DNA of 64,000 nt, taken from assembly GCA_022711335.1 (NCBI GenBank), contig JAKLFF010000001.1, positions 405,754-469,753 of the forward strand, read 5' to 3'. The stretch is from Patescibacteria group bacterium (GTDB lineage Bacteria > Patescibacteriota > Minisyncoccia > Moranbacterales > UBA2206). The stretch's first letter is position 1; every line of letters starts with the position of its first letter. The notes under the pieces are model-generated. The model was not told the DNA's origin, made no database searches, and was given only the letters and a program-made list of their open reading frames with translations. A program made the translations under genes and the position numbers. Shown here piece after piece: positions 7,924 to 57,992 of the stretch.

Positions 7924-9051
7924 ATGTCTCTCACTCCCCAAGAACAATTCAAGAAATTTCTGGAAAGTTCCAAAGATATCCTTATTCTTATTCCGGAAAA
8001 TCCTTCTGCTGACGCAGTTGGATCCGCTTGGGCACTCTATTTCTTCCTCCAAAACAAAAAATTAGTTCCGACAATTGCTTTTTCCAACAATTTATCCCAA
8101 AAATACAGTTTTTTGCCAAAACCTGAACGAATTCTTTCTGAAATTTCCGGCGCACGCGATTTTGTTTTGTCTTTCGATATCAGCCGAAATAAAATCACAG
8201 GTCTCCGAAGCGAAGAAAAGGACGGAAAATTCGTCATCTATCTAACTCCGGAAAAAGGCACTATTGATCCGAGGGATTTTTCGTTTATCTTGGCCAAATT
8301 CAAATATGATCTCATAATCGCGCTCGACAGTCCGGATTTGGAAAAGCTTGGAAAAATATACACGGAAAATACTGATTTGTTTTTTGAAGTTCCTATTGTG
8401 AATATAGATCATCGAAGCGATAACGATAATTTCGGGCAAATTAATCTCGTTGATGTGACTGCCTCATCCTGCTCGGAAATTCTCTCAGGAGCGTTTGAAA
8501 GCATTGATCCGCTTTCAATAGACAAGCTTGTGGCCACATGCCTTCTTTCCGGCATTATCGGCGCTACCGACAGCTTTCAGAAAAAAAATACTACTCCCAG
8601 ATCTTTTTCCACTGCCGCTATCCTTATGGATAAAGGCGCCGACCAGCAGGAAATTGTCCGCTGGCTTTATAAAACTCATCCTTTGCATATCTTGAAGCTC
8701 TGGGGCCGTGCCATGGCCAAGCTTAATTGGGATCCGGATTCCAAATTGGTCTGGTCGGAAATCAGCCTTGAAGATTTCATTCAAAGCCGGGCTAATCCCG
8801 CCGACCTGACTTTGATTTTGGAAAAACTGCAAGAAAGCTATTCGGATGGAAAAATTTTTATGGCCATACATAATGACACGCCGGCATCTTCCACGGCCTG
8901 TATAAAGACGGCTGATATTGAAATTGCCAAGAAAATTTATTTAGCTTTTGGCGGAGAAATAAGACGAGGAATTTTGGAAATAAAATTTGAAAAATCCAAC
9001 CTGACTGGAGTTGGAAAAGCCGTAGCAGAAAAAATAAAAAATATTGTTTGA
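7924..9051 (+). CDS. DHH/DHHA1-family phosphoesterase (NrnA-like)
   Basis: 375 aa. The N-terminal DHH-like region (ILILIPENPSADAVGSAWAL; IDHRSDND) and a C-terminal DHHA1-like region resemble the NrnA/RecJ-like family; the motif is DHR rather than canonical DHH. Confidence 0.5.
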   Translation: MSLTPQEQFKKFLESSKDILILIPENPSADAVGSAWALYFFLQNKKLVPTIAFSNNLSQKYSFLPKPERILSEISGARDFVLSFDISRNKITGLRSEEKDGKFVIYLTPEKGTIDPRDFSFILAKFKYDLIIALDSPDLEKLGKIYTENTDLFFEVPIVNIDHRSDNDNFGQINLVDVTASSCSEILSGAFESIDPLSIDKLVATCLLSGIIGATDSFQKKNTTPRSFSTAAILMDKGADQQEIVRWLYKTHPLHILKLWGRAMAKLNWDPDSKLVWSEISLEDFIQSRANPADLTLILEKLQESYSDGKIFMAIHNDTPASSTACIKTADIEIAKKIYLAFGGEIRRGILEIKFEKSNLTGVGKAVAEKIKNIV

Positions 9052-9142
9052 ATATTGAATTTAGTATTTGTGGAATTTAGAATAAAAATGCTACTAATAT
9101 ATTCCACATTCAAGATTCCCATTCAAAATTTGAAATTCTCAA

Positions 9143-9170
9143 GACCCTTCGGTCTTTTTTATTTTTTTAT
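9143..9170 (+). terminator. Rho-independent terminator after the DHH gene
   Basis: AGACCCTTCGGTCT hairpin followed by TTTTTTATTTTTTT. Confidence 0.5.
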
Positions 9171-9190: not shown

Positions 9191-12100
9191 ATGATAAAGA
9201 TAGTGAAAAAAATATCGTCCGAAGAAAAATCCGAAAAAGAAATACAGACTCAAAAAATTCTTTCCAAAATGCGCCGGGAATCTGAAGAAGAGCAAGCCTC
9301 TGTTTTTGCCGCGTCTCTTAATCTTCCTTACATAGACACCAATCTTGTTCCAATTGCAACTGACGCCATAAAAACTCTGACGGAAGAAGAATCTAAAAAA
9401 TATAATCTGGCCATTATCCAAAAAATGGCCCGGATTGTGACAGCTGTTTCTACCGATCCATTTGAAAATAAAACCCAGGATTTTATCAAAAAACTTACCC
9501 GAGAAAATGGCTGGCAGATAAAAGTTTTTGTAGTTTCCCGCACCAATCTTGAACGCATTTGGGAAAAATACAAAAAAATCGTCTTTGTCGATTATCTTGA
9601 TCAGATGGCAGTAAACTTGTCGGGGGAAGAACTGGAAAATTTTGAAGAAGAACTTAAGGAGCTCATTACCCTGAAACAGAGGATATCAGAGCTTTCCACA
9701 ACCCAAATAATTGATATTATCATGGCCGGAGGCCATAAGCTTGGCGCCTCCGATATCCACCTTGAGCCTCAAGAAAAAGAAGTTAGGCTTCGATACAGAA
9801 TCGACGGAGTTCTCCAAGATATCGCCTTTTTCCCGCTTAATGTTTTCAAATCCATAACTTCAAGAATAAAAATGATGGGCGGCATGAAGATTAATGTCCG
9901 AGACATCGCCCAAGATGGAACTTTTAAAATTAAAATTAAGTCCAAAAAAGACGAAAAGAAAATTGATACCCGGGTTTCGATTATTCCTGGAAATTTCGGA
10001 GAGTCTATTGTAATCCGGCTTCTTAATCCTGAATCCGTAAATGTTAAATTGGAAACTCTGGGGCTTCGGGGTCTGGCTTATGAACAAATCCAAAAACAAA
10101 TAATAGCTCCCAATGGAATGATCTTAAATACCGGTCCGACCGGCAGCGGAAAAACGACTACGCTTTATGCCATCATCAACAAACTTAATGAGCCGGACAA
10201 AAAAATAGTCACTATTGAAGATCCGATTGAATACGAACTTCCCGGAATTTCCCAATCCCAAGTTGAAAAATCAAGAGGCTATACGTTTGCTTCCGGACTT
10301 CGCGCCATTGTCCGGCAAGATCCAGACATAATTCTAGTCGGAGAAATCCGCGACGACGAAACAGCTGATATTGCCATAAATTCAGCGCTTACCGGACATC
10401 TGGTGCTTTCATCGCTTCACACCAACAATGCTATCGGATCTATCCCAAGGCTTATTGAGCTTGGGACCAAACCTTCCCTCATCTCGCCGTCAATCAACGC
10501 AATCATCGGACAAAGGCTGGTGCGGAAGCTTTGCGATTGCAAAGAGGCTTATGAACCAGCCAAGGAATCCATTGAATCTCTAAAAAAAATCCTTTCAATT
10601 ATCTCTCCCAAATCTAAAATTGATGTTCCCAAAAATATTTTCAAACTTTATCGGGCCAAGGGATGCCCGAAATGCAATAGCCTGGGATATAAGGGACGCA
10701 TTGGAATATTCGAAGTTCTCACTATTAATCCGGAAATAGAAAAATTAGTCATGGATTTGGCATCAGAAACAGAGCTTACCTTAGCCGCGCTAGAATCAGG
10801 CATGATCACCATGCTCCAGGATGGAATCCTAAAAGCCTTGGAAGGGATAACTTCGATTGACGAAGTGAAAAGAGTAACCGGCGAAGGAGAATTTTTAGAA
10901 GATATTTATGAAAAACTGATGGCTGCAACATTGGGGAGATCAATTCTTATCGATTCCAAAAGTTATAAGTCCGCCAAAGATAATATTGGAAATTTTAAAA
11001 AATTTCAGAAAATTATTTCTAAAGCCAAAACCACTGAAATTGCAAAAATACTTTTTGCCGCCGCTTCTATTTTGGGTGTGGGAGATATTCACATTGAGCC
11101 CCAGGCAAAATCCGTGAAAATAAGATTTCGGATTGACGGGATCCTTCAAGATGTAGCATCTATTTCACTTACTGAATACCCAGCTTTTTTAGGAGAAATA
11201 AAATTGCTTTCCGGAGTGAAAACAGAAGTGCGCCAGGGAGTAGTTGACAGCCGCTTTACTATAAAATTTGACGAAGATATTAAAGATGCTCGTGAACCAG
11301 CCACTGATGTACGTGTTTCCATAATATTAGGCGGTTATGGAGAAACTGTAGTACTTCGTCTATTGTTTAAAACCAATCTCGAATACGATTTAAAAAAATT
11401 AGGCATCCGGCAGCAAAATCTGGACAAAATAATGGAAGAAATATCAAAGCCTAATGGCGTAATCCTCAATACCGGGCCAACTGGAAGCGGAAAAACTACG
11501 ACACTTTATAGTATTTTGAAGCATCTCAATAAGCCGGAGGCAAAAATAATCACCGTGGAAGACCCGATTGAATATCAAATGGAAGGAATTTTGCAAACGC
11601 CCGTCAATGACAAAGAAGGTTATACTTTTGCAACAGCTCTTCGCCAGCTTCTTCGCCAGAATCCAGATGTAATGATGATCGGAGAAATTCGAGATGATGA
11701 GACCGCTAAAATTGCCATGCAAGCCGCACTCACCGGACACTTAGTTTTTTCCACGCTTCATACGAACAGTGCTGCCGGAGCCGTAGCAAGACTGGCTAAT
11801 ATGGGAATATCGCCCCAGGATATCGCTATGGCCTGCGATGCTTTTATCGCCCAGCGCCTTATTCGAAGACTTTGCGATTGCAAAAAGAAAGTTAAACCGA
11901 CTGTCGAAGAAAAAGCTACAATTGAAAAAGTTTTGAAAACCATTTCCCAAAAATCCGGAGTGACTGTTCCAAAAATCGGAGATATTTACAAACCGGGAGG
12001 ATGCAAAAAATGCAATCACATCGGATACAAAGGCCGCATGACTGTAAGTGAAGTGTTTAAAATAACAAAAAACATTCAAGAGCTCGTCACTCGCGGAGCT

Positions 12101-12226
12101 ATCACTTCTGAACTTCAAGATAAAGCCGTAACTGATGGAATGCTGACTATGACACAAGACGGGATTTTACGGGTTTTGGAAGGAGAAACAACGCTGGAAG
12201 AAGTGGAGAGGGTGACGGATTTATAG
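9191..12226 (+). CDS. Tandem-fused double GspE/PilB-type secretion ATPase (type II secretion / type IV pilus assembly ATPase family)
   Basis: 1011 aa with two complete ATPase units. Each unit has a Walker A (GPTGSGKTTTLYAII and GPTGSGKTTTLYSIL), an Asp/His box (DPDIILVGEIRDDETA...LSSLHTN and NPDVMMIGEIRDDETA...FSTLHTN), and a tetracysteine motif (CDCK...GCPKCN and CDCK...GCKKCN). Confidence 0.8.
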   Translation: MIKIVKKISSEEKSEKEIQTQKILSKMRRESEEEQASVFAASLNLPYIDTNLVPIATDAIKTLTEEESKKYNLAIIQKMARIVTAVSTDPFENKTQDFIKKLTRENGWQIKVFVVSRTNLERIWEKYKKIVFVDYLDQMAVNLSGEELENFEEELKELITLKQRISELSTTQIIDIIMAGGHKLGASDIHLEPQEKEVRLRYRIDGVLQDIAFFPLNVFKSITSRIKMMGGMKINVRDIAQDGTFKIKIKSKKDEKKIDTRVSIIPGNFGESIVIRLLNPESVNVKLETLGLRGLAYEQIQKQIIAPNGMILNTGPTGSGKTTTLYAIINKLNEPDKKIVTIEDPIEYELPGISQSQVEKSRGYTFASGLRAIVRQDPDIILVGEIRDDETADIAINSALTGHLVLSSLHTNNAIGSIPRLIELGTKPSLISPSINAIIGQRLVRKLCDCKEAYEPAKESIESLKKILSIISPKSKIDVPKNIFKLYRAKGCPKCNSLGYKGRIGIFEVLTINPEIEKLVMDLASETELTLAALESGMITMLQDGILKALEGITSIDEVKRVTGEGEFLEDIYEKLMAATLGRSILIDSKSYKSAKDNIGNFKKFQKIISKAKTTEIAKILFAAASILGVGDIHIEPQAKSVKIRFRIDGILQDVASISLTEYPAFLGEIKLLSGVKTEVRQGVVDSRFTIKFDEDIKDAREPATDVRVSIILGGYGETVVLRLLFKTNLEYDLKKLGIRQQNLDKIMEEISKPNGVILNTGPTGSGKTTTLYSILKHLNKPEAKIITVEDPIEYQMEGILQTPVNDKEGYTFATALRQLLRQNPDVMMIGEIRDDETAKIAMQAALTGHLVFSTLHTNSAAGAVARLANMGISPQDIAMACDAFIAQRLIRRLCDCKKKVKPTVEEKATIEKVLKTISQKSGVTVPKIGDIYKPGGCKKCNHIGYKGRMTVSEVFKITKNIQELVTRGAITSELQDKAVTDGMLTMTQDGILRVLEGETTLEEVERVTDL

Positions 12227-12350
12227 TTGAATTTAGAATTGTGAATTTAGTATTTTGAATGGGAATATAGAATTTTGAATACTAGTGAATTCTAAATTCT
12301 TTATCCTTAACTCCCATTCTAAATTCTAAATACTAAATTCAAAATTCCAT
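12227..12350. repeat. AATTCTAAAT-family intergenic inverted-repeat element
   Basis: GAATTTAGAATT / GAATTTAGTATTT / GAATGGGAAT units are followed by their inverse complements (ATTCTAAATTC, CCCATTCTAAATTCTAAATACTAAATTC). The same motif family recurs at 9058-9090, 27270-27440, 35310-35345, 39695-39720 and 40210-40340, always just downstream of genes. Confidence 0.55.
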
Positions 12351-12782
12351 TAATAAAAGGCAGGTTCCTTTCTGTTTCTGTTTTGTTAACTATTAAAGGT
12401 AATCAGTGGTTCTGACAATAATCTGCAGGCAAGATCCCAAAGCAAGGCCCCGGGGGAAGAAACAGTGTCGAGGAACGGCACAGCCGAAACCAAACCGCCC
12501 ATGTCTGGACAAAAAAGTTTCCTAATTGAAGACAAAAGATAGAAGCCTCCAATTGCCTACAGTTTACTGCTAATCATCTAAAAAACGCGCAAATGCGATG
12601 TTTTTGATGACTTTAGAGCGTAGCATAACTTCCTTTTTTTGTCAAACGGGTATATAATAACACTAGGATTAATTTACAATGATCAATTATCAATTTACAT
12701 TGAATTAACAATTGATTAATTTTCAAAATTGAGTCATTGAAAATTGATTGAAAATTGTAAATTGAAAATTGAAAATTTACTG

Positions 12783-13802
12783 ATGATTGTTAATGCAAGC
12801 GAACAAAGCGAAGATATAAGTTTAGACATTACACTAAGACCTCAATCTTTCAATGAGTATGTCGGCCAGGAAAAGGTCAAAAAAAATCTGGACATTCTGA
12901 TCCGCGCCGCCAAAAAAAGAGAGGAACCGATTGAGCATGTTTTGCTTTACGGCCCGGCGGGACTTGGCAAAACGACTCTGGCCAATATCATTGCCAAAGA
13001 AATGGGGGTGAATATCAAGACTACTTCCGGTCCGGCAATTGAAAGAGTGGGAGATTTTGGATCGATTCTCACCAATCTGTCCGACGGCGATATACTTTTC
13101 ATTGATGAAATCCATCGGCTCAACAAATCCATTGAAGAAATTCTTTATCCGGCCATGGAAGACTATAAGCTGGATATTATCATCGGAAAAGGCCCTTCGG
13201 CCCGAACCATTCAGCTCGATCTTCCCAAATTCACTTTAATCGGCGCTACTACAAAGTTGGGATCGATTTCCAATCCCCTGCGAAACCGCTTTGGTGCCAT
13301 TCATCGGCTGGATTTTTATGAAAACAGCGAGATTGAAAAAATAATTGAGCGTTCATCTAAAATTTTGGAAGTGCCAATGGAAAAATCGGGTTTGTGCAAA
13401 ATTGCCAGCTGCGCGCGGCGCACTCCAAGAGTGGCTAACAGGCTACTTAAGCGCGTCCGCGATTTTTCCCAAATCAATAATCATAAGTCTATTGACAGCG
13501 CCATTGCCGAGGAAGCCCTTGAACTCATCGACGTTGATCATATCGGACTTGAACCGGCTGATCGGCAAATTTTGAAAACTATCATTGAAAAATTCGGAGG
13601 CGGACCGGTAGGGCTTGGAACAATCGCCGCCGCTACGCAAGAAGAAATAAAAACCATTGAGGATGTTTATGAGCCATATCTTATCCAGATCGGATTTTTG
13701 GCCAGAACTCCGCGCGGAAGGATGGCTACCCAAAGTGCCTACGATCATTTGGGGATTTTGCCTTCTCAAAATCAAAATACCACAGCATCTTTAGATATAT
13801 AA
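12783..13802 (+). CDS. ruvB: Holliday junction branch migration ATPase RuvB
   Basis: [13 protein letters not shown], Walker [15 protein letters not shown], Walker [10 protein letters not shown], and the sensor/arginine finger region ...[21 protein letters not shown]. The track ORF starts at 12744; the ATG at 12783 is more plausible. Confidence 0.85.
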
Positions 13803-19771: not shown

Positions 19772-20431
19772 ATGGAAATACATTTAAGTCCGATAGTTGG
19801 CTTTTTTGCCGGACAGGGAGTGCCTTTGGAAACCATTCTTCTTCTCCTTATGCTTCCAATTATCGCCACATTTATCGCTTTCCTCCGCCAAGTCGTCGGG
19901 ATCAAGGCCTTTGGAATCTATACTCCTCTCATAGTCACTTTTTCCTTCCTAGCTACCAACGGAGTGAAGTATGGAGCAACAATTTTTCTTTCCGTTGTTA
20001 TTATCGGAATGCTCATGAGATTTGCACTCAAGCCTTTCAGGCTTCTTTATCTTCCGCGCGTCGCCATAATGCTCACCGTCGTCACTATTGTGATTTTGGG
20101 CATTTTGGTTTTAGGAGGAAATGCAAGAAGAACCGGTTTAGCTCACGTTTCAATTTTTCCAATTTTAATAATGATCACCATTGTTGAAAAATTCGTCGCT
20201 GTCCAAATTGAAAAAGGAGACAAGATGGCCATCCGGCTGGCGTTAGAAACTTTGGTTATTTCCATTTTAGGATATTACTTGGCCAGTTCAAAAATTCTTT
20301 TGGAATTTATTGCCAGCTATCCATGGACAATTCTTTTTACTATTCCAATAAATATTCTTCTCGGCAAGTGGACCGGTCTTCGCCTCACAGAATATTTCCG
20401 GTTTAAAGAAGTAATTAAGAAAATGCCTTAA
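19772..20431 (+). CDS. Polytopic (about 7-TM) membrane protein, partner of the RimK-like ligase/aspartic-protease system
   Basis: 219 aa, about 6-7 predicted helices, with its stop 3 nt before the RimK-like gene. It resembles the 7-TM module that is fused to an inactive transglutaminase domain in the three-gene system described for these ligases; the synteny argument is inference. Confidence 0.4.
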   Translation: MEIHLSPIVGFFAGQGVPLETILLLLMLPIIATFIAFLRQVVGIKAFGIYTPLIVTFSFLATNGVKYGATIFLSVVIIGMLMRFALKPFRLLYLPRVAIMLTVVTIVILGILVLGGNARRTGLAHVSIFPILIMITIVEKFVAVQIEKGDKMAIRLALETLVISILGYYLASSKILLEFIASYPWTILFTIPINILLGKWTGLRLTEYFRFKEVIKKMP

Positions 20432-20433
20432 TT

Positions 20434-21876
20434 ATGTTTGGATTTATAAAAAAAAGCCGGAAAATTTTAGGGATGGATGCAAGAAATCTTATCTACATCC
20501 GCCCTTTTAACTTGAAATCAGCCAAAAAAATTGCTGATGATAAGCTTCTTTGTAAAAAAATCCTCAAAAAAAACGGCATTTCTGTCCCTAAGCTTATCGC
20601 GAAAATAAAAACCTATGAAGAGCTGGAGAATTTTGACTGGTCCACTCTTCCAGACAGCTTTGCGTTGAAACCGAATCGCGGCCTTGGCGGAGAAGGGATT
20701 ATTGTCGTTTATGGAAAAAAGAAGCCTGCCCGCAATGCTTTGCTCGGCAATGCAGACGAAAATACGCCTGCCTGCTGGATAAAAGCCGACGGAAGCCTTA
20801 TCTCAATAGAAGACTTAAAAGCTCACATCCGAAATATTCTGGATGGTTCCTTTTCTCTTTCCAATACTCCCGACACGGCTTTTTTTGAGGAAAGAATCCG
20901 GCTTTTGAAATTATTTAAACCCTATTCATATAAAGGAATCCCGGATATTCGTATCATTGTTTTTAATAAAGTCCCGGTTATGGCCATGCTACGCCTGCCA
21001 ACCGAGGCATCTAAAGGAAAGGCTAATCTCCAACAAGGCGCTATTGGCGTGGGAATAGACCTTGCCACCGGAACCACAACGACAGCCGTCCTAGGAAAAA
21101 ATAAACTTATTGAATATGTTCCAGGCACGAGAATGTTGCTTTCGGGAATAAAAATCCCCTATTGGAATGATATTTTAAATTTGGCCGTAAAGACACAAGA
21201 AATTTCGGGACTGGGATATTTAGGCGTTGATGTAGCCATCGACAAGGAGGATGGCCCGATTATTTTGGAACTCAATGCCCGTCCGGGCCTTTCCATTCAA
21301 ATTGCCAACCTTGCCGGACTCAAAGAACGGCTGGAAAGAGTTTCGGAGCTCAAAATAAAAACCGCCAAAAAAGGCATCCGGGTCGGAATGGATCTCTTTG
21401 GAGGAGAAATTGAGGAAGAATTGGAAGAAATTTCCGGAAAAAAAGTAATAGGCACCGTGGAAAAGGTAAAATTAATTGGAAAAGACGAAAGAGAAATAGA
21501 GTCAGAAGCCCGAATTGATACAGGCGCGTATTCCAGCTCAATTGATGCAGAATTAGCCAAGGAGCTTGGCTTTCAAAAAACACTTGAAGAATTTTCAAAA
21601 ATTGATTTGGCCGCATATGAAATATCACACGAAAAAGAAAATGAAATAAAAAAGGTTTTTATGGAAAAATACAAAAAAATTATACCTGAGATCGAAGATG
21701 TCGCCGTGGTGATCTCCTCAAGCGGCTCCTCAATTAGGCCAACAATAAAAATTAATTTTATTTTAGACAAAATAACTATCGCGTCTAAGGTTAACGTCAT
21801 TGACAGAGGAAATCTAAAATACCCCATATTGATTGGCCGAAGCGATCTTAAGAAATTTCTAATTGAAATAAAATAA
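20434..21876 (+). CDS. RimK-type ATP-grasp ligase (alpha-L-glutamate-ligase-like) fused to a C-terminal retropepsin-like ('ATP-dependent zinc protease' family) domain
   Basis: ATP-grasp core (KPNRGLGGEGIIVV..., DIRIIVFNKV..., NLQQGAIGV..., ILELNARPGL). The C-terminal ~130 aa contain ARIDTGAYSS (a D-T/S-G-A aspartic-protease signature) and ...YPILIGRSDL. Confidence 0.6.
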   Translation: MFGFIKKSRKILGMDARNLIYIRPFNLKSAKKIADDKLLCKKILKKNGISVPKLIAKIKTYEELENFDWSTLPDSFALKPNRGLGGEGIIVVYGKKKPARNALLGNADENTPACWIKADGSLISIEDLKAHIRNILDGSFSLSNTPDTAFFEERIRLLKLFKPYSYKGIPDIRIIVFNKVPVMAMLRLPTEASKGKANLQQGAIGVGIDLATGTTTTAVLGKNKLIEYVPGTRMLLSGIKIPYWNDILNLAVKTQEISGLGYLGVDVAIDKEDGPIILELNARPGLSIQIANLAGLKERLERVSELKIKTAKKGIRVGMDLFGGEIEEELEEISGKKVIGTVEKVKLIGKDEREIESEARIDTGAYSSSIDAELAKELGFQKTLEEFSKIDLAAYEISHEKENEIKKVFMEKYKKIIPEIEDVAVVISSSGSSIRPTIKINFILDKITIASKVNVIDRGNLKYPILIGRSDLKKFLIEIK

Positions 21877-22799
21877 TGAAAGAACTGCTAGTGTTAATCC
21901 TTTATGACAAAAGCAATAAAAATGCAGAGGATTTTCCTTCCGCCTATAAAGATCTGTATGCATATTTAAAAAATAAGAATGTTATTCTCTGTAGAGCCAA
22001 AATAGCTTCTTTCGATAAAAAAACTGGTTTTTTTAAGAAGGCGCAATTTTATAACAAAAACTGGTTTTTTAGAAAAAATGTGCGTCCGGATTTGGTTTAT
22101 GACAAATCCCCTTTTATTACTGACAAAAATTTGATGGTTCTCAGAAAATTAATAGCTAGGTGCTATCCTTTTTGTAACTCCCTGAATCTGAGCAAGCTGC
22201 TAAGCGATAAATGGCTAACCTACAAAGCTTTCTCTGATTTTTCTCCAAAAGCAGTTCTTGTTACTAGTAAGAGTGACTTGGGAAAAATAAAGCAATTATC
22301 TTCCCAAAAAATAATCCTTAAGCCGCTTGGAGGTTCTGGCGGCAAAGGAATAAAAATATTTGAAAAGAGCGCTATGAAGCCGGTTCTTTATCCATTCCTG
22401 GCGCAAGAACTGATTGAAGTGAAAAAAGGGATTAAGGGCTTTGCATCGGGAGCACATGACTTGCGCATAATGATCAGGAATGAAAAGATTTTTTATTCTT
22501 TTCTCAGAATACCGCAAAAAAACAAGTTGCTTTCCAATCTTTCCCAGGGAGGGACAGTACGAGTTGTTCCCATAGACAAACTTCCTAAACTAGTTTTTCC
22601 ATTCATTAAAAAAATTCAAAGCAAACTGAAAAAATACAAGATAAAACTATATTCCATTGATATAATAATCGACGACAACAAAAAGCCATGGATTATTGAA
22701 ATGAATTCACGCCCGGGAATTACTCTCGAAAAAGAAGAATTGCCATATCGCGAATATTTTTATAATAATTTGATAATTTTTTTCAAAAAAGCCCTATGA
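21876..22799 (+). CDS. RimK-type ATP-grasp ligase paralog
   Basis: ILKPLGGSGGKGIKIF, DLRIMIRNEKIFYSFLRIPQKNKLLSNLSQGGTV, IIEMNSRPGI. Start/stop coupled with its neighbours. Confidence 0.55.
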   Translation: MKELLVLILYDKSNKNAEDFPSAYKDLYAYLKNKNVILCRAKIASFDKKTGFFKKAQFYNKNWFFRKNVRPDLVYDKSPFITDKNLMVLRKLIARCYPFCNSLNLSKLLSDKWLTYKAFSDFSPKAVLVTSKSDLGKIKQLSSQKIILKPLGGSGGKGIKIFEKSAMKPVLYPFLAQELIEVKKGIKGFASGAHDLRIMIRNEKIFYSFLRIPQKNKLLSNLSQGGTVRVVPIDKLPKLVFPFIKKIQSKLKKYKIKLYSIDIIIDDNKKPWIIEMNSRPGITLEKEELPYREYFYNNLIIFFKKAL

Positions 22800-23764
22800 A
22801 AAAAGTCATGATTCTTTTTGGAAAAGACAGCTGGAAAAAAAGCAAGCCTTTTTCTAATAAAAAATATATGTATTCTTATGAGTATTTCTACGCTTTGTGC
22901 AAAAAAGAAGGAATACAAATACTCAGAGCTTCTTATGAATGGTATGATTACAAAAATAAATTTTTCAAATATGCCTGGGTATTTGAAAAAAGCAGCAGCA
23001 TATGGAAAAGAGCTTATGACATCAGGCCAGATTTAATTTATGATAAAACAAAATCAACACCGGAAGCCTATTTAAAAAGCTCCTTGATACGCGCCAACTA
23101 TGCTTTTTTCAATGACATTGAATTTTCTAAAATAATAGACAATAAGCTGGCGGTCGGGCTCTTCTTTTCGGATTGGTCTAAAAAAAGCCTGCTAATTGAA
23201 GATTTGAAGCATTTATCTGTTGCTCTTAATAAAATTTCCAATAAACAAAAAATGGTTTTGAAGCCGGCGAATCTCAGCGGCGGAGAAAATGTATTCATAG
23301 GGCAAAAAGCTGAGTTGATAGAGAGAGTCGGCGCGGCCAAAATAAACCTTACTGATTGGATACTCCAGGATTTCATCGACTCATCTGATGGAATACCTGG
23401 GATAATGAGGGGCATTCATGATCTAAGATTAGTGATCATTGATACTGCTATAGTTTATTCCTATTATCGAACGCCAGCAAAAGGAAGCCTGCTGGCCAAT
23501 TTAGCCCAGGGAGGATCCATGGAAATTGTGCCTCTAAAAAAGCTCCCCAAAAGCATTCTTCCTATCGTAAAAAAGGCCAATCAACTTTTTTCCGGATTTG
23601 AGCATAAGATATATACTATTGACCTGATGTTTGACAAAGACAAGCAGCCTTGGATAGTGGAGCTTAATTCAATGCCTGGAATGTATTTTGCTCCAGGACA
23701 GGAAAAAACCAGAGACTTTTTTTATAAAAAGTTGGCATCTGTTTTTAAAAATATTTTGAACTGA
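22796..23764 (+). CDS. RimK-type ATP-grasp ligase paralog
   Basis: VLKPANLSGGENVFIG, DLRLVIIDTAIVYSYYRTPAKGSLLANLAQGGSM, IVELNSMPGM. Overlaps the previous gene by 4 nt. Confidence 0.55.
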   Translation: MKKVMILFGKDSWKKSKPFSNKKYMYSYEYFYALCKKEGIQILRASYEWYDYKNKFFKYAWVFEKSSSIWKRAYDIRPDLIYDKTKSTPEAYLKSSLIRANYAFFNDIEFSKIIDNKLAVGLFFSDWSKKSLLIEDLKHLSVALNKISNKQKMVLKPANLSGGENVFIGQKAELIERVGAAKINLTDWILQDFIDSSDGIPGIMRGIHDLRLVIIDTAIVYSYYRTPAKGSLLANLAQGGSMEIVPLKKLPKSILPIVKKANQLFSGFEHKIYTIDLMFDKDKQPWIVELNSMPGMYFAPGQEKTRDFFYKKLASVFKNILN

Positions 23765-23770
23765 TTTTTT

Positions 23771-24631
23771 ATGCGAATCTGCGTAATTACAGACTACGAA
23801 AAATCCTATTCCTCAGTTAAATTACTTCGCGAAGCGGCTGGTTTTGGCGTTAAAATATTCTTTTTCAGATGGAAAGATATTGTTTTTGACGGGACAAATT
23901 TGGGTTTTGCATCAAATAAAAAAGTGGCCTTGGATAGTTTTGACGCTGTAATATTGCGCAGCTCCATCACTTCTTTGACGCCAAGCAGCCTGGTTGTAAA
24001 TTATTGCAAACACAAAAATATACGCCTTTTGAATGAAAACTTCTATCTTCGCCACCAATCGATAAATAAATTGACCCAACAATTTATTTTCCAGGCAAAG
24101 AAAGTCCCGTGCTTAAAAACCATTTATGGAGAGAATCTGTCCTTTTCCCAGCTTAAAACTAAGCTTGGATCGCCCTTCGTGGCAAAACTTGCCAAGGGAA
24201 GCCTGGGAAAACAGGTATTTAAAATTGACTCGCAAGGCGCTTTTTCCCATTTTCTTCGCCAGCGAAAAAAAGACAAGCAGCTTTATTTATTTCAAAAATT
24301 CTATAAGATATCCGGCGATTATCGCGCCTTCATTATTGGAAAAAATGTCTATGGCTCTTTAAAAAGAACGGCCCCCAAAGGAGAATGGCGGACAAATGTT
24401 CGCAGTTCAAAACATGAGAAAGTAGAAAATAAGCAGGTTCTTGAACTAGGAAAGCTTCTGATTAAGCGTATTGGGATTGAATTCGCCGGCCTTGACATTC
24501 TCATTGATTCTTCAGGGAAACCACGTATCATCGAGCTAAACACTATGGCTTGCTTCAGGGTCTTTGACCGGATTAATCCGGAAATAAATATTGCAAAAAA
24601 AATAATCCGGTTGCTAAAAAATACCAAATAA
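23771..24631 (+). CDS. RimK-type ATP-grasp ligase paralog
   Basis: VAKLAKGSLGKQVFKI, DYRAFIIGKNVYGSLKRTAPKGEWRTNVRSS, IIELNTMACF. Confidence 0.55.
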   Translation: MRICVITDYEKSYSSVKLLREAAGFGVKIFFFRWKDIVFDGTNLGFASNKKVALDSFDAVILRSSITSLTPSSLVVNYCKHKNIRLLNENFYLRHQSINKLTQQFIFQAKKVPCLKTIYGENLSFSQLKTKLGSPFVAKLAKGSLGKQVFKIDSQGAFSHFLRQRKKDKQLYLFQKFYKISGDYRAFIIGKNVYGSLKRTAPKGEWRTNVRSSKHEKVENKQVLELGKLLIKRIGIEFAGLDILIDSSGKPRIIELNTMACFRVFDRINPEINIAKKIIRLLKNTK

Positions 24632-29042: not shown

Positions 29043-30676
29043 ATTTTTTCCAAAACATAATATAAATTTTCATCCCCCTCGCCGGTTTTCAGTGGCAATT
29101 TTTCAATCTTTTTAATCTTAAACCCGGTCAGTTTCGCCAATTCTTCAATGTCTTCATGAGAATAGGCATATCTTGTCGCAAAATGCTGCCCGTCGGGAGA
29201 ATCATAAATGCTTCCGTACCGAAAATTCCGAATGCCCCGCTTTTTCATTTCACTAGCATATTCTTCCACCATTTTTTTGTACCCACCTTTTTCTCGATTG
29301 GGAATGTCAAAAATAAACTGTCCGCCCGATGCCAAAATCCGGTTGGCTTCACGGAATAATTGAACCTGATCAATGATGGAATAATCATGCAAAATATTTC
29401 TTCCCAGAGAATAAACTGTATTCATACTTTCATTTTGAATCGCATTATTGTGCCAGTCGCCCTGAAAAACTTTTGCAACATGACCAGTTTTTTCAATGGC
29501 TTCTTTAGTTTTCTCCACGTGCCTCTGGGTGAAATCATATCCAGATATATCGTATCCGTCTTTAGCTAGTTCAGTTATCAGTCTTCCCGCTCCGCAGCCC
29601 ATTTCCAACGCTTTTTCATCCTTTCTGATCAAAGATTCCAAAAGCTCTACTTCTTTTTCATTCATTCTTTCATTGACTTTATATTCTTCGAATTTTATAT
29701 TTTCCTCGTAAAATTTTTGCAGATTTGAAATGGCGATTTTGTCATGGTTGGGAGTAATTAATGATCTGGCGTAAGCATATTCCTCATTCATATCGGAACT
29801 ACCCTCAATACGCTCGTTAATTTTTTTGCGAACAATCTCTGCGCCATATGCTTCCGTCAAAACAAACATGATCACTTTCGCTTTTTCTATTGGTCCGAAT
29901 CTCAGATAATCGAATAAAGCTACGTCAAAATCAGGAGAAATTTCTTTTCGGCCTTTAAGGCATTCGGCTATTTCTCTAGCATGGTATCTGGAATAAAAAT
30001 CACGATCAATATAATTAAGAAGATAAAAGTCAGTCTTCCAATCGCCAATTTTCTCTTTGTGTTTTTTGAAATTCTTGAGTATCTCTGACGTTGTTCTGCC
30101 AAATATTTCGTGATAATCCATCATTTCTAGAATGGCATCGCGTTCCAAATTTTCCGGTTCTTTTTCTCCTCTTTCTTCCAAATCATCTTGATCTGGCTGA
30201 TGGATGCTCCGACAATATTCCAATCTTTGTCTTTCTTCTTCAGTATAATCATCGGGTTCGTAGTCGGAAAGATTGGCCCACATGGCTCTGTCCAGCCATT
30301 CTTTTCTTCTTTCCTTGTATAATTTTATAAGGTATTCTCCGAAAAATTCTGCCGCTCTTTTTGGATTATTTTCAAACATTTGGGAAATAAGCACCGCCTT
30401 GAAGTCTCCAAATTCATCAACGTCATTATCATAAAGATAATCAGTGTTGTATTTTTCCGGGAAATTATTTGAAATGAAAATTTCCCCGACCATTCGCCAA
30501 CCTGCTTGGCTTTTCAATATTTCATCCGCGTTTTTACCGCGCAATTCTTCAGGCAATCCGTCCTTTAATGTATCAAAAAATTCCTGTACGTCTTTCTCAT
30601 TAAAAATAACTTTCTCCTCTGGCAGAACGATTTCTTCTTTTTCAGAATTACCCTGAACCGGTATTTTTTCAAACAT
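29039..30676 (-). CDS. Class I SAM-dependent methyltransferase domain protein with a large N-terminal region of unknown function
   Basis: C-terminal motif I LEMGCGAGRLITELAKDGYDISGYDFTQ and a post-I region ...ILASGGQFIFDIPN. The N-terminal ~330 aa show no match. Confidence 0.55.
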   Translation of the reverse strand: MFEKIPVQGNSEKEEIVLPEEKVIFNEKDVQEFFDTLKDGLPEELRGKNADEILKSQAGWRMVGEIFISNNFPEKYNTDYLYDNDVDEFGDFKAVLISQMFENNPKRAAEFFGEYLIKLYKERRKEWLDRAMWANLSDYEPDDYTEEERQRLEYCRSIHQPDQDDLEERGEKEPENLERDAILEMMDYHEIFGRTTSEILKNFKKHKEKIGDWKTDFYLLNYIDRDFYSRYHAREIAECLKGRKEISPDFDVALFDYLRFGPIEKAKVIMFVLTEAYGAEIVRKKINERIEGSSDMNEEYAYARSLITPNHDKIAISNLQKFYEENIKFEEYKVNERMNEKEVELLESLIRKDEKALEMGCGAGRLITELAKDGYDISGYDFTQRHVEKTKEAIEKTGHVAKVFQGDWHNNAIQNESMNTVYSLGRNILHDYSIIDQVQLFREANRILASGGQFIFDIPNREKGGYKKMVEEYASEMKKRGIRNFRYGSIYDSPDGQHFATRYAYSHEDIEELAKLTGFKIKKIEKLPLKTGEGDENLYYVLEKI

Positions 30677-30724
30677 ATTTTTTGTGCTTAAGCAATTCTA
30701 TTCTATCAAATCCAGGGAAAAGAA

Positions 30725-30815
30725 AAAAGGCGAGCGGGTCGTGGCGTGGTAGCCTATCCCGGATGCTCGCCCTTAGCGGTTTCGGTTTTTTTAGGGAGAC
30801 CGAAAACTCCCGCCG
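30725..30815. repeat. Structured ~85-bp element, copy 1 (direct repeat of 31737-31827)
   Basis: GGCGAGCGGGTCGTGGCGTGGTAGCCTATCCCGGATGCTCGCC (stem GGCGAGC/GCTCGCC) + TTAGCGGTTTCGGTTTTTTTAGGGAGACCGAAAACTCCC (second stem GGGAG/CTCCC). Nearly identical to the copy 1 kb away. Confidence 0.6.
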
Positions 30816-30841
30816 GCTATTCAGGGGATGCCGGTCACTCC

Positions 30842-31093
30842 TCAAAAAATTTGTTTTTTTCGGCCGGTCCACCAGCCGACTTCCTCCTCCCGCACCTTCA
30901 AGATGCAGGAGATCTCGAAGTAGTCCTTGGGCTCTCCAAAGCCCTCAGACTCTTCGACTGTGTCTAAAAACAACTGTTCCTCGCCGGTGGCGAGGAACTT
31001 CTTCTCTAATTCCCTGACCACGTCGCCGTGGCCAGAGTCGAACAACAGGCCGTGTCGCAGCCCGTTGTCCTTGATTTCAAATTTCTTTCCCAT
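30842..31093 (-). CDS. Hypothetical small protein (GC-rich islet)
   Basis: 83 aa from the ATG at 31093, with a strong RBS (AGAAAGGAGAAAAATATG). The codon usage is visibly GC-richer than in flanking genes. Confidence 0.4.
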   Translation of the reverse strand: MGKKFEIKDNGLRHGLLFDSGHGDVVRELEKKFLATGEEQLFLDTVEESEGFGEPKDYFEISCILKVREEEVGWWTGRKKQIF

Positions 31094-31251
31094 ATTTTTC
31101 TCCTTTCTATGGGAAATTAACTTCACTTCTGAACCCGCAAAGCCAATCTTTACGGGTTCGGAATGAAGGGCAAAACTTTTGTCGTGGTAGACTCAAGTCT
31201 TGCCATTCAAGTGGTTCCCTTTTTATATACCGCTGGGACAGCGGTCGGAAA

Positions 31252-31590
31252 TCAGAGTTTTTCAAAAATCACTCTGATTTCCTTAATCCGGAACCATCCT
31301 GCGTGGCGAAAGCCAAGCAGTTTGGTTCCGTCGACCGGGTCCATGACCCGGTCATTCTTGCAAAAGAGCACGGGCTTGTCAGGCCCGGCTATCTGCAAAA
31401 ACTGCTGCTGCAGCGGAAGTGGGGCCACGATGGCCACCACGTCCGCCGCAGCGATCTCCTCGGCCAATTCATGCGCCGAAGAGATCGTCCGATTGACCTG
31501 GTGAACTTCCACCAGGCCAAAAATTCTTTTCAAGTCGGCCGATTGCTCGGCCGACATCTCATGCCTGGAAAACCACAAGACTTTCGTCAT
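31252..31590 (-). CDS. Hypothetical small protein (GC-rich islet)
   Basis: 112 aa from the ATG at 31590 (RBS AGGAAAGGAGAATCTCATG): MTKVLWFSRHEMSAEQSADLKRIFG.... No motif recognised. Confidence 0.4.
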   Translation of the reverse strand: MTKVLWFSRHEMSAEQSADLKRIFGLVEVHQVNRTISSAHELAEEIAAADVVAIVAPLPLQQQFLQIAGPDKPVLFCKNDRVMDPVDGTKLLGFRHAGWFRIKEIRVIFEKL

Positions 31591-31736
31591 GAGATTCTCC
31601 TTTCCTGCTGAACATTTCCCTTGCGCCGTTTCGCTCCCAACCACATCCTGATCAGCATTCAGGACTGGGCCAAGCGCAAAGAAAATTTTTTCACTTCCGA
31701 TTCTGCGAAGACAATCCTCACAGACTCGGAATGAAA

Positions 31737-31827
31737 GGCGAGCGGGTTGTGGCGTGGTAGCCTATCCCGGGTGCTCGCCTATTTTAGGTTTCGGTTTTTT
31801 TAGGGAGACCGAAAACTCCCTTGAGAG
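31737..31827. repeat. Structured ~85-bp element, copy 2
   Basis: GGCGAGCGGGTTGTGGCGTGGTAGCCTATCCCGGGTGCTCGCC + TATTTTAGGTTTCGGTTTTTTTAGGGAGACCGAAAACTCCC. A truncated third partial copy (CGGAATGAAGGGC) is at ~31140-31165. Confidence 0.6.
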
Positions 31828-32067
31828 CTACCACATCCGGTTGTCACACCGGGGGCAGCCCTCGTTCTTGACGTAGACATACTCGTCTACGCCAAATTCC
31901 TGCCCGCACCGCGGGCAGGAGAAAAAATTTTCATAGACTGCCAGATGGCAGTCTATGCATTCCCTCGCCTTCCCGGCGAGGGAAAAAATCTGGTGTGGAC
32001 AATCGTCCACACCAGATAAAATTCCTTCACTGCTGCAAATTTCGCAGCAGACGAATTTCTTTGCCAT
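31828..32067 (-). CDS. Zinc-ribbon (multi-CxxC) small protein
   Basis: 79 aa from the ATG at 32067 (perfect RBS GAAAGGAGGAACGCC-ATG): MAKKFVCCEICSSEG...CPHQ...CIDCH...CPRCGQEF...CPRCDNRMW, with four CxxC pairs. GC-rich. Confidence 0.5.
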   Translation of the reverse strand: MAKKFVCCEICSSEGILSGVDDCPHQIFSLAGKARECIDCHLAVYENFFSCPRCGQEFGVDEYVYVKNEGCPRCDNRMW

Positions 32068-32326
32068 GGCGTTCCTCCTTTCATGGCAAATGTTAACCTT
32101 TCCCCAGCCAGTGTAACTCCCGACCAGTCCGACACAACGTCGGACCCGGGCCATAGCTGGTTTGTCCAGCACCAACTACTCCTCACTAACAAAAGTTTGT
32201 TTAATAAAGAAAAGTTGGTGCTGGATTTATTCGCATGTGCCCATTCGTTAGGGCTATTCGCATACTTCAACCGAGAGAAAATAAAAGCTAATTGAAATAT
32301 GTAATAATTTATGCTAAGCTATTGCT

Positions 32327-35338: not shown

Positions 35339-36496
35339 CTAATTTTTAATTGGCATCACGATATAGGTAAAATCATGTAAAACTTCGCCGGTTTGTTCAT
35401 TTATTTCCTTTAAAGCGATTGGCGTTGATTCACTGTTCATAAGAAAAGCCACTTTGGAAGTTGAGATGCTATTAATTCCATCTAAAAGATATTTTGAATT
35501 TAAAATTACTTCTTGAGATGGTCCAGAAACGTCAAATTTGAGCTCTGTTGAGTTTTCTCCAGTTTCCGCACTGCTAGCGCCTATAAAAATTTTCTTTACT
35601 CCAGAGTCAATTTTAATCGAAATCTCTCCTGATTTTCCCGAAGCAAAAATATTAGCCATTTTTACCGCGTTTTGAAACACGCTTTTTTCCAAAACTACCC
35701 TGGTTTTATAATCTTTTGGCATTATATGCTTATATTCAGGATATTTTCCATTAATCAACCTTGAAACAATTTTAGTCTCTTCTATTTCAAAAAAAATTTG
35801 CCCGGATTCAATCGTTATTTTCACATCACATTCTTCATTATTAGAAATAATTCTCATTACTTCATTTAATGTTCCAAATGGAATAATAATACTGTCTTTT
35901 TTGTTTATATAAGCCTCAAACACCTCTTTATTTATATTTTCCTTGTTTATACTAATTCTACTTTCAGAAAGACGAAAACTATCAGTTGAAGCAAAAAATA
36001 TCTCTTTTTGGCTTAAAATAAGGTTTATTCCAGTAAGCTCTTGTCTGGCTTCATTTTGAGCCACAGACACCATTTCCTTAGATAAGATATTTTTTAGATC
36101 AATACTATTAATATTTAATAGATATTCACTGCTTTTTTTAGGAATTAATGGAAAATCATCAGCTGATACCCCTTTTATAATTGCCTTAAAAGAGCCACTT
36201 TTTATTTTTATTCCCTGTTCAACACTTTCTATTAAAACATTATCTCCTTGAGGAAGATTATTAGAAAAACTACTAATTATTTTCGCTGGAATAGTTATTT
36301 TACCTTCTTTTTCCACTTTAACTCCCACTTTTACCTGAGCTCCCATTTCTAAATTTGTCGCGGAAAACACTAAAAACCCTTTTTTTGCTTCAAATAAAAT
36401 ATTATTTAGTATAGGCAAGGTGTTTTGCTTAGAAACAATCCTTTCTGTGTTGTATATCGCTTTTTTAAAGTTATCTTGAGTACAAATTAATTTCAT
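35339..36496 (-). CDS. dnaN: DNA polymerase III beta subunit (sliding clamp)
   Basis: 385 aa; MKLICTQDNFKKAIYNTERIVSKQNTLPILNNILFEA, three-domain length, positioned immediately downstream of dnaA. Confidence 0.85.
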   Translation of the reverse strand: MKLICTQDNFKKAIYNTERIVSKQNTLPILNNILFEAKKGFLVFSATNLEMGAQVKVGVKVEKEGKITIPAKIISSFSNNLPQGDNVLIESVEQGIKIKSGSFKAIIKGVSADDFPLIPKKSSEYLLNINSIDLKNILSKEMVSVAQNEARQELTGINLILSQKEIFFASTDSFRLSESRISINKENINKEVFEAYINKKDSIIIPFGTLNEVMRIISNNEECDVKITIESGQIFFEIEETKIVSRLINGKYPEYKHIMPKDYKTRVVLEKSVFQNAVKMANIFASGKSGEISIKIDSGVKKIFIGASSAETGENSTELKFDVSGPSQEVILNSKYLLDGINSISTSKVAFLMNSESTPIALKEINEQTGEVLHDFTYIVMPIKN

Positions 36497-36785
36497 AATA
36501 ATTTATATATAAAATTATTTAAAGTTATTACTATTTATTATATAAGCTTATTTTTGTGGATAAGTTTAGTTTTTAGCTTAAATAAAGCAAATAAAATGTT
36601 AATATATATTGGATAAGTTTTATTTTTATATACCCAGAGAGTGATGATAAGATATTAATTTAATTAAATAAAAAAGTAAACCACAAGCCGGAAACAGACG
36701 GAAAAATTATTTTGGACAAATTTTACACAGAGTTATTCTAGTGGTTTTACACAAATTATCCACCAAAGCAACCTGGAATCAGTAA
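36497..36785. promoter_or_regulatory. Putative oriC segment with DnaA boxes (dnaN-dnaA spacer)
   Basis: Perfect DnaA box TGTGGATAA at 36555-36563, TTATCCACC at 36755-36763 (1 mismatch), and ATTGGATAA at 36608-36616 (2 mismatches). The surrounding region is extremely AT-rich (a possible DUE). A further CGTGGATAA lies upstream of dnaA at ~38230. Confidence 0.5.
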
Positions 36786-38153: not shown

Positions 38154-38425
38154 AAATATTTCATAAACTAGAAAACTCGCTAGCCTAAGTATACCATACC
38201 CGAAATATAAAAGAATAGAGAAACGTGGATAAACTTGTTGATAATCTGTGATAACTGACGCAAAGCAGGCAACTCCCCCGATTAATAAATAGCATATTGG
38301 TAATTTTTGCATTAGTAAAGCCTGACGCATTTATGATTGGCAAGTTTTTCATTGACTTTGGCCCTAAAAACTGATAAACTTTTAATTGAATTGACGGATG
38401 TATTAATAATTTATCTAACAATATT

Positions 38426-48407: not shown

Positions 48408-48464
48408 TTCTGGATTTATACTAGCATATTTTTTGACAAAAAAACAGGATTTTGAATGATGTCG

Positions 48465-49178: not shown

Positions 49179-49238
49179 ATCAACTTGCGAGGATAATACG
49201 AATTAATGAAAAAAGTCAAGTGAATTATGCAAAACTTT

Positions 49239-50963: not shown

Positions 50964-51013
50964 GGATATATAAATAATTTTATAAGTAAATCTAAAAATT
51001 CTACAAATTTAAA

Positions 51014-55465: not shown

Positions 55466-55517
55466 TGTTTAATTTATTTAGAATGTTACCAGACAAATGA
55501 AGGAATGCCGCCTTGAT

Positions 55518-56000: not shown

Positions 56001-56005
56001 TGATT

Positions 56006-57823: not shown

Positions 57824-57919
57824 TGATATGCTGTTATCCTTTGTTCAGATCCAAGTCTGAACTAAGGATCTATAATGTATTATTTGTAGTTTTGTTTGTA
57901 TAATATAATTCCAGCTAAT

Positions 57920-57992
57920 TTTTTGCAGATCCCTGCCTGCCGACAGGCAGGCTTCGCGTTGATTTCGCGATCAACGTTCAGGATGGCGCCGT
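57920..57992. repeat. Two adjacent hairpins in the spacer between the two VirB4-related ORFs
   Basis: CCCTGCCTGCCGACAGGCAGG (the same hairpin family as 27291-27312 downstream of PBP1A) followed by CGCGTTGATTTCGCGATCAACG. Confidence 0.5.

Follow-up and report, generated by a model that had tools for sequence, protein, structure and literature searches.

A gene at positions 9191..12226 (plus strand) of a 64,000-nucleotide stretch of DNA from a Patescibacteria group bacterium (GenBank assembly GCA_022711335.1, contig JAKLFF010000001.1, positions 405,754 to 469,753; hereafter the window) encodes a secretion ATPase of the PilB/GspE class in which two complete ATPase units are joined in one chain of 1011 amino acids. 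The fusion is real, conserved and old, and is a variant of the PilB/GspE motor for which we found no paper: full-text literature searches turned up no account of a PilB or GspE that is naturally in tandem, the study on pili of the candidate phyla radiation (CPR) bacteria does not mention a tandem ATPase (PMC6744442), and the tandem proteins carry generic labels in the databases, e.g., ‘GspE/PulE family protein’. On balance, we consider it probable that this protein is the covalently duplicated motor, of the filament-extension type, of a type IV filament system of Parcubacteria, and that three chains would form a pseudo-hexameric ring. In the hexameric PilB/GspE motors, the coupling of ATP turnover to the platform protein is still debated, as is the choice between a PilC dimer and a trimer, between a rotation of 60 degrees and fixed pairs, and between C2 and C3 symmetry of the ring (PMC5424180, PMC6858323, PMC10790770).

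The tandem gene and its two ATPase units

The gene starts with an ATG and runs for 1011 codons to its stop codon with no internal stops, as the original prediction of a single open reading frame (ORF) with two full ATPase units had claimed. Its product has the layout N1-[N2D-CTD]-45-aa linker-[N2D-CTD], CTD being the C-terminal domain. Pfam recognizes T2SSE (PF00437, of the PilT/VirB11-like secretion ATPase superfamily) in two stretches, with 733 bits in total against a cutoff of 24.9, and the two units (aa 165-563 and 609-1009) are identical at 198/402 positions (49%, E = 1e-137). The sole N1 domain, putatively of the GSPII/MshEN fold (aa 43-127; 9317..9571, plus strand, like all of the parts of the gene that follow), precedes the first unit only and is a weak Pfam match to MshEN (20.2 bits, under the cutoff of 23.1), which AlphaFold models as a confident alpha/beta domain. 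It is followed by N2D (aa 165-290; 9683..10060) and CTD (aa 291-563; 10061..10879) of unit 1, by the partly helical inter-unit linker (aa 564-608; 10880..11014), and by N2D (aa 609-735; 11015..11395) and CTD (aa 736-1011; 11396..12223) of unit 2. The linker carries the motif G-E/D-x-x-F/Y-h-E-x-h-Y, common to the main tandem family. The restriction of the N-terminal domain to the first unit, also part of that prediction, agrees with the single, weak MshEN match. The Walker A motif, Asp box, His box and tetracysteine zinc motif claimed for each half are present: the Walker A sequence GPTGSGKT starts at aa 315 and 762, the Asp box at 342 and 789, the sequence GEIRD at 384 and 831 and the His box at 403 and 850, and the cysteines are C448, C450, C492 and C495 in unit 1 and C895, C897, C938 and C941 in unit 2. 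One correction is needed, in that the first cysteine pair is CxC (CDC) in the 1011-aa protein and not CxxC, the form found at that place in most relatives.

A sequencing error that had merged two adjacent genes was named at the outset as the result that would undo the fusion, and it is excluded: the protein recurs identically in independent data, the homologues are fused and the junction is open. Independent JGI, ENA and Logan assemblies have 14 contigs that encode the identical 1011-aa protein (P0001), which NCBI names as a protein of a Candidatus Moranbacteria metagenome-assembled genome. The six copies of the gene that were compared with that of the window differ from it by 0-2 bases, all of them synonymous. 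Frame 0 reads through the junction (nt 10853-11035), and the remaining two forward frames are stop-rich there. No plausible internal ribosome-binding site was found there, the sole Shine-Dalgarno-like site (10885) lying 34 nt 5′ of the next in-frame ATG, too far from it. Of the best 120 clusters from a search of 5.8 billion proteins, 119 have proteins of 1005-1055 aa at 67-100% identity and one a protein of 1460 aa. A more distant search, of 1.84 billion cluster representatives at the 50% level, added 13 full-length tandem representatives (P0121-P0124, P0126-P0134) of 978-1018 aa at 39-52% identity, below which the list of matches shifts to single-unit proteins of ~550 aa. By the names of their sources, the hosts of the tandem family are Moranbacteria, the Parcubacteria group and Paceibacterota. 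Given more than 130 distinct homologous clusters, all fused, the conserved sequence of the linker, and the presence of one gene rather than two at the locus in two of the closest single-unit relatives, we assign a merger of adjacent genes by sequencing or assembly error a negligible probability.

The comparison of each half with PilB, PilT and GspE, proposed as a check in the original prediction, places both of them, by profile scores, in the PilB/GspE type. Alone, unit 1 scores 474 bits on PilB, 463 on GspE and 176 on PilT, and unit 2 scores 388, 414 and 164 bits, respectively; the PilT/PilU values are under the cutoff of that model (TIGR01420, 319.1). The scores of the VirB11, TrbB, DotB and ComGA models are far below those of PilB and GspE, with 235 and 226 bits for the two units on ComGA (NF041000), under its cutoff of 300. 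The tetracysteine zinc motif, which is conserved in PilB/GspE and absent from PilT (PMC5424180), is present in both units. Among solved structures, both units come closest to Geobacter PilB, Vibrio GspE and Thermus PilF. Superposed on Geobacter PilB (5TSH), a unit of the AlphaFold monomer (mean pLDDT 82.4) gives a TM score of 0.93, a root-mean-square deviation of 2.6 Å and 42% identity, all Foldseek superpositions being of single chains. Judged on their sequences, both units are extension-type members of the PilB/GspE clade, not certified as PilB or as GspE, and neither is PilT-like. A PilT-like half was considered and rejected on the low PilT scores, the zinc motif and the best structural matches. 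An MshEN domain that binds cyclic di-GMP was also rejected: the tandem 24-residue motif of the MshE-type ATPases that bind this nucleotide (PMC5013675), RLGxx(L/V/I)(L/V/I)xxG(L/V/I)(L/V/I)xxxxLxxxLxxQ, has no match anywhere in the protein, not even to its first half in relaxed form.

The roles of individual residues were carried over from Geobacter PilB (PilB_Gm; PMC5424180) through a residue-level alignment. The arginine fingers that come from the neighbouring packing unit, R271 and R286 of PilB_Gm, correspond to R261 and R276 in unit 1 and to R708 and R723 in unit 2. The Mg-coordinating Glu of the Asp box (E357) corresponds to E347 and E794 (in Asp boxes with E343/E347 and E790/E794), the His-box residues H413 and H420 to H403 and H410 and to H850 and H857, and the contact residue beside the His box (T411) to T401 and T848; the Walker A Lys is K321 or K768 and the catalytic Glu, of the atypical Walker B motif, E385 or E832. 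All of these residues are invariant in both units of a 73-sequence alignment reaching down to 39% identity, as well as in the 13 distant representatives. Exceptions are minor: the unit-2 Walker A of some distant members reads GPTSxGKT, a form that remains within GxxxxGK[ST], and the zinc cysteines of unit 2 are missing from P0128. The earlier claim that both halves are apparently catalytic is therefore supported as far as these invariant residues go, and we infer that both units bind and hydrolyse ATP. Mean pairwise identities are close between the units (0.72 for CTD1 and 0.67 for CTD2; 0.62 for N2D1 and 0.59 for N2D2): the constraint on the two halves is similar. The chain is under purifying selection.

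These data bear on a possible division of labour, in which the motor function would fall to one unit, with the other as a regulatory module, a pseudo-enzyme or a PilT-like retraction module. Such a scheme could draw on the slightly faster evolution of unit 2, on the two minor exceptions just mentioned and on decay seen elsewhere, the unrelated P0138 having a Thr in place of the Walker A Lys in its unit 1. Against it stand the invariance of the catalytic residues and of both arginine fingers in the two units of the Parcubacteria family down to 39% identity, the score of 388-414 bits of unit 2 on PilB/GspE versus 164 on PilT, and the zinc motif, kept here and lacking in PilT. We regard it as very improbable.

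Origin of the duplication and proposed assembly of the ring

The gene always lies in a syntenic block that has polA, the peptidyl-prolyl isomerase (PPIase) gene and tsaE on one strand and, on the other, in this order, a DHH gene, the ATPase gene, ruvB, a small ORF, a bPH gene, an LTD gene, yebC, ruvC, a 7TM-transglutaminase gene and ATP-grasp genes. In the window, the upstream neighbour is a gene for a DHH-family (distant NrnA-like) phosphoesterase (7924..9051, plus strand), and DHH is the immediate 5′ neighbour in 10/13 tandem loci; the conserved downstream neighbour, ruvB, is at 12744..13802 on the same strand. Related genomes had been proposed as a place to look for two separate genes. Instead, in two of the closest relatives a single-unit gene stands at this locus: that of P0135 between DHH and RuvB, and that of P0144 in the order PBP-X-RuvB-YebC-RuvC. 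Yanofskybacteria and Paceibacterota have many single-unit relatives of P0144, ~550-565 aa long and 58-66% identical to it. Moreover, the inter-unit linker has its homologue in the last N1 helix together with the N1-N2 linker (IWEKYKK versus IYEKLMA in the window protein). Because the closest single-unit relatives occupy the same locus and the linker has this homology, the fusion is shown to be an in-frame internal duplication, in place: an orphan PilB-like gene with a single unit, located between the DHH gene and ruvB, was duplicated from its last N1 helix through its C-terminus. On the same two grounds, a merger of two neighbouring genes was rejected. The C-terminal extensions of single-unit relatives of 700-860 aa were considered as decayed second units and rejected too, as they are low-complexity or coiled-coil tails.

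This duplication occurred at least three times in the PilB-like gene of the DHH-ruvB locus. In a neighbour-joining tree of 182 units, the halves of P0133, which are 74% identical and whose repeat starts within ~aa 100-129, pair with each other in 200/200 bootstraps, and those of P0126 in 190/200; since the halves pair within their own protein, and both genes are at the same locus with linkers that lack the motif of the main family, they count as separate events. The deep nodes of the tree are weak, the monophyly of unit 1, of unit 2 or of all of the tandem units being recovered in 0/100 bootstraps of one neighbour-joining run, and a clean separation into a unit-1 and a unit-2 clade was not obtained with this method. 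The single origin of the main family is thus drawn from the shared linker motif and from synteny, not from the tree. A triple form, P0005 (1460 aa; L003 10001-14383, contig Ga0248662_100121), is found in the same DHH-linked synteny with catalytic motifs in all three units. The linker and N2D of its middle unit are 56-78% identical to unit 3 versus 18-35% to unit 1, and the C-terminal part of its CTD is 55-76% identical to unit 1 versus 35-53% to unit 3. This pattern marks P0005 as the product of an old unequal crossover, in which the two CTDs of a two-unit gene recombined, and not of a misassembly, because its chimeric parts have since diverged.

The units of the main family are asymmetric on one surface of N2D. 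In 127 single-unit proteins, as in every unit 1, helix alpha2 and the alpha2-beta4 loop show a conserved pattern, which in the single-unit proteins is R-x-K, then K-x-N, then QDGRF. Unit 1 has invariant R225, K227 and N235, and in the window protein its helix and loop are canonical, with QDG. The main tandem family has lost the Arg and the Asn of the pattern from unit 2, where only K671 and the R-F pair remain, typical sequences being GEIK, STIK and QEGRF; the window protein has E669 in place of the conserved Arg and E679 in place of the Asn. The young independent tandems P0133 and P0126 retain the canonical N2D residues in both units. Across the main family, N2D1 and N2D2 are 25-44% identical and CTD1 and CTD2 41-58%. 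A complementary loss of QDGRF (the Arg in unit 1, QDG in unit 2) was examined as a general feature and discarded, as it is confined to a Moranbacteria subclade. The segment that diverged in unit 2 is the one that contacts PulF in an AlphaFold-Multimer model of PulE6:PulF3, in which each cytoplasmic domain of PulF lies on one N2D through helix alpha2 and the alpha2-beta4 loop, and every PulF binds two adjacent N2Ds (PMC10790770). The potential functional asymmetry between the halves that the original prediction had raised thus exists on the platform-facing surface of N2D2 and does not extend to the active sites.

In PilB, the packing units, each of N2D(n) and CTD(n+1), are joined by flexible linkers, and all of the solved PilB motor structures that one study covers are C2 hexamers (PMC6858323); ATP turnover travels round all of the interfaces of the ring (PMC6858323, PMC5424180). 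By analogy, three tandem chains would form a single pseudo-hexameric ring, in one plane, where units 1 and 2 alternate (1-2-1-2-1-2) and each interface keeps its arginine fingers. This would account for the absence of decay in either unit. Opposite sites would pair one unit-1 site with one unit-2 site, so that every site would have to work, which fits the observed invariance. Six is divisible by both unit counts, 2 and 3. The ring would have just three N1 anchors and would show alternating canonical and diverged N2D surfaces to PilC/GspF, a platform protein whose protomer is likewise internally duplicated and has been modelled as a trimer (PMC10790770).

A more specific arrangement can be proposed, in which the three chains would pair one-to-one with three PilC-like protomers, N2D1 on one cytoplasmic repeat and N2D2 on the other, locking the register of the motor. 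We hold it as a tentative proposal, more doubtful than probable. If true, the platform would be unable to step round the ATPase ring in 60-degree increments, contrary to rotary models, and force would pass through fixed N2D-platform pairs; the recurrent fusions, with unit counts of 3+3 and 2x3, would then be natural evidence on the stoichiometry of motor and platform.

Tandem ATPase domains commonly stack in other ring ATPases, and this counts for a different assembly, in which six chains would form coaxial hexamers of unit 1 and unit 2, only the unit-1 ring would engage the platform, and the unit-2 ring would act allosterically or add power. The lack in unit 2 of equivalents of R225 and N235 on the modelled platform-binding surface of N2D (PMC10790770) and the presence of N1 on unit 1 only also speak for stacked rings, which are compatible with the pTM of the AlphaFold monomer. 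The N2D(n)-CTD(n+1) packing with flexible intrachain linkers (PMC6858323), however, suits an in-plane linkage, and the inter-unit linker is a re-used native N1-N2 linker. In addition, the canonical N2D2 surfaces of the young duplicates P0133 and P0126 indicate that the fusion was viable before any surface was lost, and no stacked PilT/VirB11-like ATPase was found in the literature searched. A stacked double ring, the strongest of the alternatives, appears unlikely to us.

Several results weigh against the in-plane ring of a type IV filament motor. The diverged surface of N2D2 would be just as compatible with a second ring out of contact with the platform protein, and the pTM of the monomer, only 0.47, is too low to place the two units relative to each other. 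Single units fall short of the equivalogs of PilB (TIGR02538, cutoff 675.65; 474 and 388 bits) and of GspE (TIGR02533, cutoff 630.25; 463 and 414 bits), and the whole protein reaches 850 and 865 bits, respectively, by summing its units. The main-family unit-2 clade, even when two gene fragments are admitted, is recovered in 28-41/200 neighbour-joining bootstraps, and the triple-unit form is known from one contig only. Finally, the type IV filament is suggested by homology and not by gene neighbours: no gene for PilC, PilM/N/O, prepilin peptidase or pilin was found in the window or, at the related CPR loci, in the flanks with annotated genes (L014-L016 and L022 being non-CPR loci). The absence of adjoining pilC, pilM, pilN, pilO and pilin genes, noted from the start, extends over the whole 64-kb window, where no T2SSF, PilM/N/O or pilin family was detected (Pfam, 50/59 ORFs), and a scan for the prepilin motif in the window and in the Moranbacteria loci gave no match.

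Under the reading that we favour, a covalent dimer fixes the identity of the neighbours in the ring, halves the number of N1 anchors and lets the two unit positions evolve separately. Its natural outcome is that the catalytic sites and arginine fingers stayed unchanged while one platform-facing surface drifted. The protein would also be a ready-made construct in which one ring position can be mutated, otherwise feasible only with engineered linked subunits, and one orthologous locus offers, as a comparative data set, single and triple forms along with double ones that arose independently three times or more. In many Parcubacteria, the PilB-like gene stands as an orphan beside ruvB, a point that matters for the annotation of CPR pili.

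Surroundings of the gene and a candidate structured RNA

In the gap between the DHH gene and the ATPase gene, a hairpin followed by a T run (9141..9156, plus strand) matches the consensus of a terminator, although such sites are no commoner here than in shuffled sequence; because this terminator-like hairpin precedes it, the ATPase gene may be transcribed on its own. A conserved promoter-like site, TTGTCA-N17-TATAAT, lies on the other side, before ruvB.

The neighbourhood invites the question of whether the protein is a pilus motor at all. It could instead power DNA uptake or handling tied to ruv, polA and fpg, or have a VirB11-like role for the type IV secretion system (T4SS)-like cluster in the same origin-proximal region, since the gene is found among polA, tsaE, DHH, ruvB, yebC and ruvC and never beside pil genes, VirB4/TraG-like ATPase and T4SS_pilin-like genes occur at 47-64 kb and near the homologues of L017 and L018, and VirB11 belongs to the same superfamily. 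Yet the block also holds unrelated housekeeping genes (for PPIase, TsaE, PBP1 and ATP-grasp proteins) and looks like an inherited order in a reduced genome and not like an operon, with the terminator-like hairpin and the promoter-like site separating the ATPase gene from its neighbours. Hallmarks of the PilB/GspE clade, an N1-type domain and the tetracysteine zinc motif, are kept, and the PilB/GspE scores are far above those of VirB11, TrbB, DotB and ComGA; type IV pilus genes, moreover, are widespread in CPR genomes (PMC6744442). We thus consider a role outside of a pilus quite improbable, and a filament-extension motor remains our preferred reading.

The T4SS/conjugation-like cluster itself covers 47073-63956 (minus strand) and comprises a VirB4/TraG-type P-loop ATPase gene (56006-57823), genes for several large membrane proteins that match T4SS_pilin weakly, a gene for a CAAX-protease-like protein, and two large ORFs without a Pfam match (52116-54794 and 60792-63056). 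Similar genes are found near the single-unit homologues in L017 and L018. At 35339-38330 (minus strand), dnaA and dnaN have rnpA-like, yidC and jag-like (KH/R3H) genes as neighbours, and the GC skew changes sign near 38 kb; this region is probably the chromosomal replication origin, and the ATPase locus is therefore origin-proximal, as it is in L018.

Downstream of the ATPase gene, 194 nt past its stop codon, a candidate structured RNA of ~145 nt (12420..12565, plus strand) stands out by nucleotide-level conservation in a spacer of 517 nt; the promoter-like site of ruvB is located downstream of it. Five helices are predicted, and the single-stranded stretches ACAAAAGAUAG and CAGCCGAAACC are invariant. 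Copies were located in L001 (13124-13269), L009 (11944-12090), L008 (13087-13227), L013 (13686-13832), L003 (14448-14589), L010 (14088-14236), L018 (11694-11839), L019 (11071-11209) and L017 (3210-3338). A covariance model built from seven Moranbacteria loci matches, outside of the loci used for training, the single-unit locus L018 (E = 3.6e-7), the independent tandem locus L019 (E = 2.7e-6) and the single-unit locus L017 (E = 0.013), each time on the same strand and directly 3′ of the ATPase gene. In a 10-sequence alignment, 88.8% of the cells pair versus 79.0 ± 1.2% in shuffles, and 16/29 pairs are changed on both sides versus 6.7 expected; when the partners were slid by 1-3 columns as a control, pairing was 31-48%. 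No Rfam family matches the element even at E ≤ 10. It follows the ATPase gene in tandem, triple and single-unit loci alike, and in L003, where ruvB is not downstream, it is still found after the ATPase gene: the candidate RNA travels with the ATPase gene. Between the two, right after the ATPase stop, the window has an AT-rich near-palindromic repeat (12240-12335) with weak matches to miRNA-like Rfam hairpins; it is not conserved in relatives and may be a terminator or a mobile remnant.

Other features of the window and of the related loci can be noted. At 19772-24631 (plus strand), the gene for a 7TM-transglutaminase-type membrane protein precedes a run of four ATP-grasp paralogues (RimK/ATPgrasp_ST-like), of which one has a fused Zn-protease-like domain; the synteny of this cluster with the ATPase block is conserved. 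A GC peak of 0.466, against ~0.38 elsewhere, at 30001-32000 coincides with doubtful short ORFs (30682-31017, 31252-31644 and 31828-32175) and gave no Rfam or tRNA match; no tRNA gene or Rfam family was found across the 64 kb. Locus L009 (CAZCMV010000014.1), which has a tandem gene of the Moranbacteria type and the full block, is titled ‘uncultured Bdellovibrionales bacterium’, probably an error of binning or labelling.

Comparison with known systems

PilB of Geobacter metallireducens (PDB 5TSG/5TSH/6OLJ) shares with each unit of the tandem ATPase the N2D-CTD fold, the equivalents of R271, R286, E357, T411, H413 and H420, and the tetracysteine motif. In contrast to PilB, the chain described here has two units and a single N1, its units score under the equivalog cutoff, its gene is away from pilC and pilT, and the surface of its N2D2 is diverged. 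GspE/EpsE/PulE (PDB 4PHT, 4KSR and 1P9R) belongs to the same clade and has the same layout of N2D, CTD and zinc motif behind an N1 domain, which is putative in the tandem ATPase, and unit 2 even scores slightly higher on GspE (414) than on PilB (388); here, however, the scores per unit are under the cutoff, and no gene for GspL, GspF or a secretin was found in the window or in the flanks examined. CPR bacteria are reported to lack the secretin PilQ and probably have no Gram-negative envelope (PMC6744442).

The platform protein PilC/GspF, in the model of the PulF trimer (PMC10790770), resembles the tandem ATPase as an internally duplicated protomer of which three copies give six domains round an axis. 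It is a membrane protein of a different family, and its correspondence with the tandem ATPase is a proposal of ours.

A second tandem protein, P0138 (L020 8001-11144), has a T2SSF-like domain followed by two T2SSE units, the halves of which pair in 154/200 bootstraps. It differs from the window ATPase in its independent origin, in its other N-terminus, in its locus, after an extracytoplasmic function (ECF) sigma/anti-sigma factor, and in its unit 1, where the lysine of Walker A has been lost (GPTGSGTT). Fusions of the T2SSF (PilC-like) cytoplasmic domain to T2SSE units, encoded directly after an ECF sigma/anti-sigma pair, occur in bacteria that are GC-richer and probably non-CPR (L020; L015, L016 9629-11113).

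Thermus thermophilus PilF (PDB 6F8L, 913 aa) is likewise a long PilB-type ATPase enlarged by internal repetition. In PilF, it is the N-terminal GSPII domains that are repeated, with a single ATPase unit, whereas in the tandem ATPase the ATPase unit itself is repeated. Linked modules are also known in other ring ATPases: KaiC, p97 and ClpB have stacked tandem domains, dynein has six AAA modules in one chain, and single-chain ClpX has been engineered. All of these share with the tandem ATPase the covalent linkage of ring modules, but they belong to different ATPase clades.

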